Source: Zestosphaera tikiterensis (GTDB lineage: Archaea; Thermoproteota; Thermoprotei_A; Sulfolobales; NBVN01). Taken from it: 32,000 bases of DNA. A program made the translations under genes and the position numbers. A model generated the notes under the pieces. It had not been told where the DNA came from. It did not search any database and worked only from the letters and a program-made list of their open reading frames with translations. Every line of letters begins with the position of its first letter. Positions within the stretch are counted from its first letter, which is position 1. Positions 11,823-13,778 of the stretch are shown piece after piece. The stretch covers positions 360,001-392,000 of the forward strand of contig NBVN01000004.1 in assembly GCA_003056265.1 (NCBI GenBank), given 5' to 3'.

Positions 11823-11837
11823 GCTCTAATCACTTAG

Positions 11838-11842
11838 TTTTT
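11838..11842 (+). terminator. T5 tract after the oadB-like gene
   Basis: TTTTT lies 16 nt after the stop. Confidence 0.3.
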
Positions 11843-12249
11843 ATAAACTTTCTCAACTCTTTAAGACTACTAAGGGTTGAGACTATAGTTAGAATCGATA
11901 AAGACAGGATTTTTAAAGCTATATGGATCTCGGCTTTTATAGTGGCTAATCTAACAGTGTTTCTCCTAATGCCTTATAGGGCTGTAGTCCATTTAATGAT
12001 GTTCTACACATCAAGCTTAATGACATACTTCATAACTTTAACAGCTTTAATCGCCATCACCCACATAAAAGAGGAAGCAAACCTAAGTTACTGACTTAAA
12101 CCTTAAACATACAACGCATAATTACGTCTTTGACTCTGTTTTACTTGACAGTCCCGACGAAGTAACTTATATCAACACCTTCTAAAGTGTGGTACGAGTT
12201 AAGTTAACCTCTTGTTCAATAGGGGTTGAAAGTAACCTTTAGTTAAGGC

Positions 12250-12257
12250 TTTAAATA
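12250..12257 (+). promoter_or_regulatory. TATA-box candidate for the Lrp/AsnC gene
   Basis: TTTAAATA lies about 23-32 nt upstream of the GTG 12280 and ATG 12289 starts. Confidence 0.45.
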
Positions 12258-12279
12258 GTGATGAGCGTATTTTAGTGAG

Positions 12280-12714
12280 GTGTTGTTGATGAAGGAGAGG
12301 ATTGATGAAATCGATATGAAGTTGATTAAGTTACTTAAGGAGAACGCTAGGATGAAGTACTCTAGTCTGGCGTTGGAGTTAGGTATAAGTGAGTCAGCCG
12401 TTAGGAAAAGGCTTAGGAAGTTAGTGTCTTTAGGAATCATCAAGAAGTTCACTATAGAGTATGTAGTCCCGAATGAGGTGAGGGCGGCTATACTTATAAA
12501 AACATCGCCTCTAAAACCCGTGCCTGAGGTTTCTAAGGAGATAGTGAAGATTGAGGGTGTGGATACAGTTTATGAAGTTACAGGCGATAACGACATATTA
12601 GTTATTGTGAAAGCACCGTCTATAGACGCAATAAACAAATGCATAGATAAAATAAGAGCTATTCCAGGAGTGGCTAGTACGAACACCTTAATAATACTAA
12701 GATCTTGGAGTTAG
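12280..12714 (+). CDS. Lrp/AsnC family transcriptional regulator
   Basis: 144-aa ORF with an HTH_AsnC pattern (IDEIDMKLIKLLKENARMKYSSLALELGISESAVRKRLRKLVSLGIIKKF) and a C-terminal RAM/AsnC_trans_reg-like domain. Alternative start ATG 12289. Confidence 0.85.
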   Translation: MLLMKERIDEIDMKLIKLLKENARMKYSSLALELGISESAVRKRLRKLVSLGIIKKFTIEYVVPNEVRAAILIKTSPLKPVPEVSKEIVKIEGVDTVYEVTGDNDILVIVKAPSIDAINKCIDKIRAIPGVASTNTLIILRSWS

Positions 12715-12852
12715 TATACGCGATCACTTAAAGAACTGCGGAAGCTCACGCTTACACAGCCTCTAAAGCATTTATCAAGCGACATGTTTAAAAAAGTTTA
12801 AACTAATGACGTTAAGTTACAACTGAAAGCCTCGCCTTTTAAGATGGGCGCG

Positions 12853-12863
12853 AAGGTTTATAA
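12853..12863 (+). promoter_or_regulatory. TATA-like box AAGGTTTATAA in the left arm, pointing into the palindrome
   Basis: An identical 11-mer is present on the opposite strand at 13456-13466. It is conserved in a part of the arms that is otherwise about 80% matched. Confidence 0.3.
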
Positions 12864-13024
12864 GTTGTTTCTTCTAATTTGTTTTGGTGATGATGTTTAA
12901 TGTGTGTGGGAGGTAAACCTCAAGCGAAACAATTAAAGCATACGCACAATCCATACCATGCCTCCCACACGAAGTCTTGAGATCATCTAAAGGTCGATGA
13001 TTGATGAAGGTATTCCATAACCCC

Positions 13025-13292
13025 GAGTCCCTATGGGATAGGGGTAATGGGCCGGAGGCCCGGCCCGGAGGTGAATGAAGAAAGATGTACCTCCAAACCA
13101 ATGAACCGCTTAGGAAGGGGGAACCCTCACCCTTCAGGACGGGGAGAGGGTCATAAACGCTTAAGTTAGCTGAAGAAACGCCGCAAACGCTCCTGATAAT
13201 GGATAGGGGATTAGCTCAGAGAAACTGACCTCCTCCCCGTCCTGAAGGGCGGGGTTTCCACTGCTGGGTCTTGAGCGATACCCCTCCTTAAG
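13025..13292. other. GC-rich structured core of the palindrome (candidate structured RNA or DNA junction; family unknown)
   Basis: Hairpins at 13049-13066 (7 bp, loop AGGC) and 13067-13094 (6 bp, 16-nt loop). Stem 13109-13120/13281-13292 has 11 of 12 positions paired. Stem 13125-13153/13226-13254 contains a perfect 16-bp run, 13130-13145/13234-13249. Confidence 0.4.
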
Positions 13293-13451
13293 GGGGTTAT
13301 GGAATACCTTCATCAATCATCGACCTTTAGATGATCTCAAGACTTCGTGTGGGAGGCATGGTATGGGTTGCGTGTATGCTTTAGTTGATATTGCTTAAGT
13401 TTTACCTCCCACACACATCAAGCATCATCACCAAGAATAAATTAGAAGCAA

Positions 13452-13778
13452 TTATTTATAAACCTTTCCATCCCCACCATAAATGGCGAGGCTTTCAGTT
13501 GTGACGGTGTTCCAGTGTTGAGGCGGTGTTTTAACATCTTTAAGTTCAACCCTACCTCCTCGATCGTTAATGTATTCGTAGATTTTCATTGCGTGGCTTA
13601 ATTCCTCTTTAGCCTGTATTTTCATCGAGTGAGCAAATCCTTTAAGGCCTTTATGGTCGAAGAACGTGGCCATAGAAAGATATAAATATGCTGAGTAGAG
13701 CTCATTGTTAAGTTGGGTGTTTAAAGCTTCTAACACTTTATCGCTTAACGTTTTTAACACCGTTAATATATCTAACAA
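13452..13778 (-). CDS. ferritin-like protein, 3'-truncated (probable pseudogene; only the N-terminal half of a ferritin)
   Basis: The 108-aa ORF matches the canonical ferritin N-terminal half (LNTQLNNELYSAYLYLSMATFFDHKGLKGFAHSMKIQAKEELSHAMKIYEYINDRGGRVELKDVKTPPQHW). Similarity stops there, and the last 16 codons are read from palindrome-arm DNA. Confidence 0.6.
   Translation of the reverse strand: MLDILTVLKTLSDKVLEALNTQLNNELYSAYLYLSMATFFDHKGLKGFAHSMKIQAKEELSHAMKIYEYINDRGGRVELKDVKTPPQHWNTVTTESLAIYGGDGKVYK
13456..13466 (-). promoter_or_regulatory. TATA-like box AAGGTTTATAA in the right arm, pointing into the palindrome
   Basis: Mirror copy of 12853-12863. It overlaps the last codons and stop of the truncated ferritin ORF. 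Confidence 0.3.

Follow-up and report, generated by a model that had tools for sequence, protein, structure and literature searches.

What kind of object is a 690-bp imperfect palindrome with a GC-rich core, located at positions 12816–13505 of a 32,000-nt stretch (the window) of the genome of the archaeon Zestosphaera tikiterensis (contig NBVN01000004.1, positions 360,001 to 392,000)? A first-pass annotation of the window, made from the sequence alone, had placed it in a rare non-coding gap, had matched it to no insertion sequence (IS) or miniature inverted-repeat transposable element (MITE), and had named as candidates a very long double-stranded RNA (dsRNA) hairpin, a foldback mobile element and a cruciform-forming DNA site. 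Our analysis makes it highly probable that the palindrome is a composite of two non-autonomous elements of the IS200/IS605 family, namely, MITE-like palindrome-associated transposable elements (PATEs) of the ISDka2 type, inserted in opposite orientations into and just behind a ferritin gene of Z. tikiterensis, a member of the Desulfurococcaceae. The supposed non-coding gap is this ferritin gene, broken by the insertions, and not an intergenic region. The two copies stand tail to tail and, apart from a 268-bp core that is flipped between two independent assemblies, represent ordinary mobile-DNA debris. The coordinates of all features are collected in Table 1.

Both copies keep the left end of the IS, consisting of TTAC or TCAC followed by AACTGAAAGCCTCGCC, a subterminal hairpin and a TATA-like box, and both finish with the conserved right end CCCTTCAGGACGGGGAG(G/A)(A/G)GGTCA(G/T), in which a hairpin and then the tail GGAGGAGGTCAG close the copy. 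The hairpins near the two ends are of the types CCTCGCC..GGCG(G) on the left and CCCTC(A/G)CCC-TTCA-GGACGGGG on the right, and no single copy has terminal inverted repeats: AACTGAAAG... at one tip and ...GGAGGTCAG at the other do not match as inverted repeats. In both copies tnpA and nearly all of tnpB are gone, and only the last 70–140 nt or so before the right end are retained, a stretch which in the full-length IS corresponds to the 3' end of tnpB and the scaffold of the TnpB guide RNA (omega RNA). With lengths of 334 and 276 nt and stops in all six frames, the copies are too short for a transposase; weak remnants of the TnpB C-terminus were detected at 13022–13075 and 13084–13152, within the long scaffold of copy 1. 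The end motifs occur twice in the window, compared with 0.04–0.05 expected occurrences, and the structure as a whole is far above chance. The perfect outer 18 nt of the palindrome (ACAACTGAAAGCCTCGCC), noticed in the first-pass annotation, proved to be the left end of the family, recurring upstream of the right-end motif in many loci.

Relatives were collected by scanning one genome per species for exact matches to the shared 24-nt right-end motif CCCTTYAGGRCGGGGAGRRGGTCA. The motif was found in at least 120 stretches, nearly all from thermophilic archaea, and the matches listed include Desulfurococcales, Caldisphaera, Thermocladium, Vulcanisaeta, Sulfolobales, Archaeoglobales and Thermococci. 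When 121 right-end copies were lined up, conservation stopped directly after GGAGGAGGTCA (GGTCA), the next base usually being G, and TTAC was present directly 5' of the left end in 31 of 40 family left ends. Among the matches listed, the distance from left to right end fell into classes of 38 nt (21 copies), 208–422 nt (12 copies, including the window halves at 333 and 275 nt) and 1.3–1.8 kb (five copies). Copy 1 could be aligned collinearly from end to end with L066 (331 nt) and L006 (335 nt), both of which are single-copy elements, and copy 2 shared its size class with L058 (275 nt) and L054 (272 nt), having the same backbone as the long half minus approximately 58 nt internally.

The longest size class connects these short elements with autonomous transposons. 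Two 1.79-kb relatives, L044 and L028, from metagenome-assembled genomes (MAGs) of Ignisphaera and Desulfurococcales, are full-length and encode a Y1 transposase (Pfam Y1_Tnp) and TnpB (OrfB_IS605 and Cas12f1-like_TNB) between the same ends. The closest annotated relative is ISDka2 (orfA and orfB) in Hyperthermophilic Archaeal Virus 2 (HAV2; GU722197, our locus L130), which supplies the IS that the first-pass annotation had missed. Like the window copies, ISDka2, L044 and L028 have the left tip TTAC/AACTGAAAGCCTCGCC (the slash marks the junction) with its hairpin, and the right-end hairpin CCCTTYAGGGCGGGG with the tail AGGAGGTCAG. ISDka2 also carries the TTTATAAG box about 40 nt inside the left end, and the 3' end of ISDka2-type orfB (tnpB) is 70–72% identical to the long scaffold of the window, with 72% for ISDka2. 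Unlike ISDka2 (approximately 1.79 kb), the window copies have no tnpA, and of tnpB they retain only what corresponds to about the last 40 codons. The position of the TTTATAA box is the same in the short elements as in ISDka2, L044 and L028, and judged from this motif the boxes of the two window copies may be promoters.

Several further observations were made on the family. The 38-nt terminal-only elements, TTAC/AACTGAAAGCCTCG-CCCTTYAGGGCGGGG-AGGAGGTCAG, have the left tip fused straight to the right-end hairpin and account for 21 of 123 right-end copies among the matches listed, in many archaeal MAGs; they are found at L017, L027 (Zestosphaera sp.), L030, L034, L091, L111 and a further 15 loci, and are similar to the 52-bp terminal-only PATEs of Haloquadratum. 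The 24-nt motif is also present in a few bacterial records, namely, L019 (Sphaerisporangium) and L057 and L074 (Synechococcus MAG), the hairpin-plus-tail being common to both domains. At about positions 253–300 of L101, a second right-end-like hairpin (CCTCCCCTTAGGCAGGGAGGAGGTCGG) lies approximately 20 nt beyond the first, perhaps as a mini-element in tandem or nested position. Hot-spring metagenomes are extremely rich in TnpB proteins with at least 74% identity to the ISDka2 type (1041 matches at E <= 1e-30, P0104–P0223 among them), and the location of an ISDka2-type TnpB within the genome of HAV2 points to this virus as a possible vehicle between hosts.

We compared the two halves of the palindrome with known classes of short elements. 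PATEs are defined by the lack of terminal inverted repeats, near-terminal IS605-like palindromes, the absence of target duplication, a length too short for a transposase, and derivation by core deletion (Dyall-Smith et al. 2011, PMC3119063). Each half of the window palindrome agrees with those of these properties that could be checked, and the family likewise has a 38-nt terminal-only version; the ends are homologous to those of autonomous IS200/IS605 elements, and the insertions are of the TTAC type without target duplication. Published PATEs are haloarchaeal or bacterial, whereas the window family belongs to Desulfurococcaceae, and the arrangement in the window, a tail-to-tail pair that has undergone recombination or conversion, is absent from the PATE definition. 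Repetitive extragenic palindrome (REP) doublets in inverted orientation, termed REPINs, are mobilized by RAYT, an IS200-like Y1 transposase, and have been named as counterparts of PATEs (PMC4615843). A REPIN, like the window pair, consists of two inverted short repeats related to a Y1 transposase which together form a long hairpin. The REPIN, however, is a transposition unit that recurs as a doublet, while in the window pair each half possesses its own two ends and the halves lie on opposite strands; TnpA could therefore not move the pair as a unit. A foldback or REPIN-like doublet moving as a unit was therefore considered and rejected, since the junctions and the collinear ferritin spacer and flanks indicate two insertions and the relatives are single copies. 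The earlier suggestion of a mobile element was right in kind, but what it took for a foldback unit is two separate elements, each with its own target, ends and ferritin flank.

The insertion sites were reconstructed from the ferritin gene. The closest full-length ferritin, P0002, lies at a non-syntenic locus, and a closer, partial relative, L131, served as the reference; the reconstructed ferritin was compared by local alignment. In the intact ferritin gene of L131 (80% DNA identity), the counterpart of the GTCAC that precedes the left end in the window is GTTAC. The ferritin 3' end of L131 and its downstream region are collinear with a sequence made up of 13155–13224 and the reverse-complemented left flank. 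The ferritin end rejoined in this way reads ...LAQRK-stop, as in homologues, and the reconstructed empty site is ...GTTAC/TTTCTC... without duplication. This reconstruction shows that the terminal G belongs to the right end (GGTCAG). It also shows that the short copy was inserted cleanly, without target duplication, behind the antisense-strand TTAC that overlaps with the stop codon of ferritin, and that the long copy meets ferritin at codon 84 on its left and at codon 138 on its right. Residues 83–139 of ferritin were not found by tblastn with full-length ferritins, and codons 85–137 are missing. A by-eye match in the left flank, 'LINALEAV', was considered as a remnant of the missing ferritin middle and dropped, tblastn giving it no support. 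The ferritin gene at this locus is a pseudogene, the surviving pieces of which lie on opposite strands in the window.

The geometry of the palindrome agrees with two facing copies. A repeat search of the window placed the inverted-repeat arms at 12816–13024 and 13293–13505, as in the first-pass annotation, and resolved them into four colinear blocks: 12930–13024/13293–13387 (95 nt, 96% identity), 12884–12925/13393–13434 (90%), 12853–12883/13436–13466 (84%) and 12816–12848/13473–13505 (88%). Global alignment of the arms upheld the perfect inner 74 nt (12951–13024 versus 13293–13366), and gave 81.3% identity across the outer 134 columns, close to the earlier estimate of about 80%. This gradient is non-random, a perfect run of 74 nt having a probability of approximately 2e-7 under uniform divergence. 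The core had been described as not itself a palindrome, but 13120–13153/13226–13259 form an 85% inverted repeat, because both segments are the right-end modules of the two copies. Since the copies are homologous and convergent, the long arms are their left and middle parts, facing each other to give the long stem, and the inner core stem is their two right-end modules. Folded as RNA, the whole 690 nt form a single long hairpin of -446 kcal/mol (z = -26 versus shuffles), and the GC content of the region is 0.53, compared with approximately 0.35–0.45 in its surroundings. Hairpins 13049–13066 and 13067–13094, which had been drawn by eye, appear both in the 690-nt fold and in that of the isolated scaffold. 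Of the proposed four-part junction, these two hairpins stood as conserved omega-RNA stems with compensatory changes, while the third and fourth stems are pairing between the copies.

The RNA modules were compared with known families. At Rfam gathering thresholds the whole window gave no match, and a tRNA search found none; the search was repeated with E-value thresholds on 12700–13620. In this mode two families, HgcC and sot0042, matched on both strands in convergent orientation. For HgcC (RF00062), with a gathering score of 50, the minus-strand match at 13338..13212 had 35.5 bits (E = 2e-6) and the plus-strand match 17.9 bits, and sot0042 (RF02656) scored 32.1 bits on the plus strand at 13015–13145 and 12.9 bits on the minus strand, against 88. 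By Rfam's criterion the window halves are not members of either family; they are probably the same kind of RNA module from another lineage. Both families are tied to the right ends of IS1341-type (TnpB) transposons; sotRNAs are sense-overlapping transcripts at the 3' end of tnpB, now termed omega RNAs; HgcC bears the same right-end UUCA-loop hairpin; and transposase-free derivatives with fused ends are termed PATEs (PMC4615843, PMC12558985). The window copies share with HgcC and sot0042 the 3' hairpin with a UUCA loop and the tail GAGGAGGUCAG, with HgcC also the 5' hairpin plus GAUGA...AUGAA, and with sot0042 the same order of three stems. The HgcC alignment placed the HgcC-type 5' hairpin (GATCATC...GATGATT) within the left 74-bp repeat. 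No signal of the RNA of the signal recognition particle (SRP) or of RNase P appeared in the E-value mode. A permuted or circularized SRP-like RNA flanked by a processing stem was accordingly dropped, given the HgcC/sot0042 signal and the lack of an SRP or RNase P signal.

The scaffold of copy 1 aligns with the 3' ends of the full-length IS. An alignment of 12 scaffolds, from IS and short elements, yielded by RNAalifold a consensus structure that includes hairpins 13049–13066 and 13067–13094 and in which 13 of 33 pairs show compensatory changes; the isolated scaffold folds with z = -3.1. Of the features of omega RNAs, the long copy has the tnpB 3'-end position and the covarying stems; the short copy is without three of the stems and folds no better than shuffles. 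By comparison with omega RNAs, the guide position directly 3' of each right end would hold the ferritin sequence 13155–13224.

The core was examined in other assemblies of the same organism. A 2,018-nt contig (L002) of the Joint Genome Institute (JGI) covers the whole structure with unique flanks on either side, and is 100% identical to the window except for the 268-bp core (13025–13292), which is the exact reverse complement. Logan short-read contigs of the same organism stop within the two arms (at 12880 and 13439), and in one JGI assembly a pair of contigs shares 209 nt of the right arm region (13446–13654). The PATE pair is a practical cause of this fragmentation of the assemblies, with respect to the two breaks and the overlap alike. 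A spurious 75-aa open reading frame (ORF) across the arm/core junction was used in a search for further orientation-fixing contigs, and no record was found. The JGI orientation is ancestral, because the ferritin 5' and 3' pieces share one strand there and the flanks of each copy fit. As to the inner stem, the earlier proposal of gene conversion is supported by the identity gradient together with the flipped core, while deep selection on the 74-nt stretch is unlikely, since the stretch is not conserved in the elements of other species. Recombination or gene conversion between the inverted copies best accounts for the perfect 74-bp repeat; such recombination would also flip the core, which is seen in both orientations.

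Taken from the known mechanism of IS608 and ISDra2, the origin of the pair may be pictured as follows. Each copy would have been mobilized in single-stranded form by the Y1 transposase TnpA, acting in trans, and would have entered the DNA 3' of a TTAC-type site with no duplication of the target. For one of the two, on the antisense strand, this site would have been the TTAC that overlaps with the stop codon of ferritin, and for the other, on the sense strand, the GT(T/C)AC at codon 84; the 53 ferritin codons beside the right end of the latter would have been lost later. This loss could have occurred by recombination between two direct copies at two TTAC sites, or by TnpA-mediated deletion beside the right end. 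Transcription may start from the left-end TATA-like boxes (12857–12863 on the plus strand and 13462–13456 on the minus strand); if transcribed, each copy would give an HgcC/sotRNA-like omega RNA with a ferritin 3' guide, usable only by a TnpB encoded elsewhere, as suggested by the biology of IS608 and ISDra2 and by PMC10055086. PATE-like elements in Geobacillus can indeed carry an omega RNA that needs TnpB in trans (Meers et al., PMC10055086).

Several points weigh against the identification of the palindrome as two ISDka2-type PATEs. No further copy, tnpA or tnpB was demonstrated in the host among the matches listed from the genome scan, the metagenome scan and the TnpB search, and no extra copy lies within the 32-kb window. 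A metagenome scan for host copies with a 19-mer from the inner stem returned four chance matches only, and the absence of a Zestosphaera-labelled TnpB from the best 120 of 1041 relatives is uninformative. One copy is preceded by TCAC rather than TTAC, and one end reads GGTCAT rather than GGTCAG. All HgcC and sot0042 scores lie below the curated gathering scores, and the 53-codon gap in ferritin is not accounted for by simple insertion. Transcription, promoter activity and use of the copies by TnpB are predicted from related systems. Lastly, the core orientation of the window is either a real inversion via the 74-bp repeats or an arbitrary choice of the assembler.

We weighed these points together with other origins of the palindrome. 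It would be explained in one step if a single PATE insertion had been followed by fold-back or template-switch repair that duplicated the copy in inverted orientation; palindromes often arise so, the inner 74 nt are identical, and the 53-codon ferritin deletion accompanies the structure. The halves, however, differ by 19% in the outer 134 columns, by an indel of about 58 nt and by a divergent 3' scaffold; each has its own TTAC-type junction and flank, both collinear with the ferritin gene; and the spacer between the right ends is ferritin DNA and not a duplication centre. We consider such an origin very unlikely. Very unlikely, too, is an assembly artefact, in which the palindrome, or at least its arrangement in the window, would result from an inverted chimeric join or a mis-oriented repeat-flanked segment. 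The short-read contigs that break inside the arms, the overlap of two JGI contigs at the right arm, the opposite core in the JGI contig, and the fact that only the JGI orientation puts the ferritin pieces on one strand all speak for it. With regard to the whole palindrome, two independent assemblies hold both arms between the same unique flanks, and the arms are non-identical, with halves that are complete and have proper ends, which a chimeric join would not yield. For the palindrome as a whole, which is real, an assembly artefact is ruled out; for the orientation of its core alone, it has about an even chance.

A functional reading of the structure was considered in three forms. The exact bounding of two core orientations by inverted repeats would suit a programmed switch, in which a site-specific invertase flips the 268-bp core to control expression; the Pfam tables, however, show no recombinase or invertase among the window genes, the repeats are 74–95 bp of transposon sequence instead of short invertase sites, the flip alters nothing obvious, both junction repeats being identical, and homologous recombination between inverted IS copies suffices. 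We regard such a switch as highly improbable. It is hardly credible that a dedicated structured RNA gene or regulatory element, be it a long hairpin or dsRNA transcript or a cruciform DNA, has been selected as a palindrome. The predicted fold is very stable (z = -26) and the core is GC-rich within an AT-rich genome, but all segments are assigned to an IS end, an IS scaffold or a ferritin remnant, the relatives are single, non-palindromic copies, the outer arm is decaying (81%) with ordinary mismatches and indels and no arm-to-arm compensation, and no Rfam family reaches threshold. Nothing specific favours either the dsRNA hairpin or the cruciform site proposed before, the stem of both following from two facing copies. 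Somewhat less improbable, though still doubtful, is a natural flip-flop of the core: recombination between the 74-bp repeats would maintain both orientations in the population while conversion homogenizes the repeats; each flip would re-pair each scaffold and its ferritin guide with the promoter-bearing left end of the other copy; and convergent transcription from the TATA-like boxes might produce overlapping antisense omega RNAs (dsRNA) that modulate TnpB in trans.

Table 1. Features of the palindrome and of the adjoining ferritin and Lrp/AsnC regions (window coordinates; LE, left end; RE, right end; TAM, transposon-associated motif)
Feature	Position	Strand	Evidence or remark
Target/TAM-like TTAC	12817..12820	+	Directly 5' of the LE of the left-hand copy; TTACAACTGAAAGCCTCG matches exactly in the window
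Copy 1 as arranged in the window, 334 nt	12821..13154	+	LE, shared middle, 'long' omega-RNA scaffold remnant of the tnpB 3' end, RE ending GGTCAT
LE subterminal hairpin of copy 1 (CCTCGCC ... GGGCG)	12829..12851	+	Fold; position and sequence type as in the ISDka2 LE hairpin
TTTATAA, archaeal TATA-box-like, in LE of copy 1	12857..12863	+	Putative promoter; putative tnpA promoter in the full-length IS
74-bp perfect inverted repeat, left copy	12951..13024	.	Likely site of recombination or gene conversion
268-bp core	13025..13292	.	Exactly inverted in the independent JGI assembly
Two conserved omega-RNA scaffold hairpins	13049..13094	+	RNAalifold, 12 scaffolds: both stems kept
RE module of copy 1	13124..13154	+	Hairpin CCCTCACCC-TTCA-GGACGGGG and tail AGAGGGTCAT
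Ferritin 3' fragment, codons ~138–161, between the two right ends	13155..13224	+	tblastn with P0002 aa 140–160, 67% identity, 13160–13222
Copy 2 as arranged in the window, 276 nt	13225..13500	-	LE, shared middle, 'short' scaffold with ~58-nt internal deletion, RE ending GGTCAG
74-bp perfect inverted repeat, right copy	13293..13366	.	Repeat search and arm alignment
TTTATAA TATA-like motif in LE of copy 2	13456..13462	-	Sequence comparison with ISDka2
Target-like TCAC	13501..13504	-	5' of the LE of copy 2; TTAC at the matching site of the related intact ferritin gene
Ferritin 5' part, codons 1–~84	13503..13748	-	Pfam Ferritin positions 2–82 of 142 only; tblastn aa 1–82
Region downstream of the ferritin stop	12715..12820	-	Stop TAA 12815–12817 on the minus strand; T-run 12790–12795; up to the convergent Lrp/AsnC gene
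Lrp/AsnC gene	12289–12714	convergent with ferritin	Left neighbour of the palindrome

Farther to the left, a stretch of 457 nt (11823–12279) between the gene for the oxaloacetate decarboxylase beta-subunit and the Lrp gene contains no ORF of >50 aa, and a strong GC skew runs from about 12200 into the start of the Lrp gene.

The identification of the locus as two convergent PATEs disposes of a false lead: the conspicuous palindrome of 690 bp, with its GC-rich structured core, is transposon debris and not a new RNA or DNA device, and the palindrome as such has no demonstrated function. It also documents an ISDka2-like PATE family whose forms in thermophilic archaea are full-length, approximately 300 nt or 38 nt long, with TTAC as a clear target and a base-exact right end. 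Sub-threshold HgcC and sot0042 matches in Thermoproteota mark putative omega-RNA modules that are missed by current Rfam models. The locus also serves as a detailed example of gene inactivation by two inverted PATEs, with 74 bp homogenized and the intervening DNA apparently inverted; in Desulfurococcaceae, this contributes to genome instability and to breaks in assemblies.

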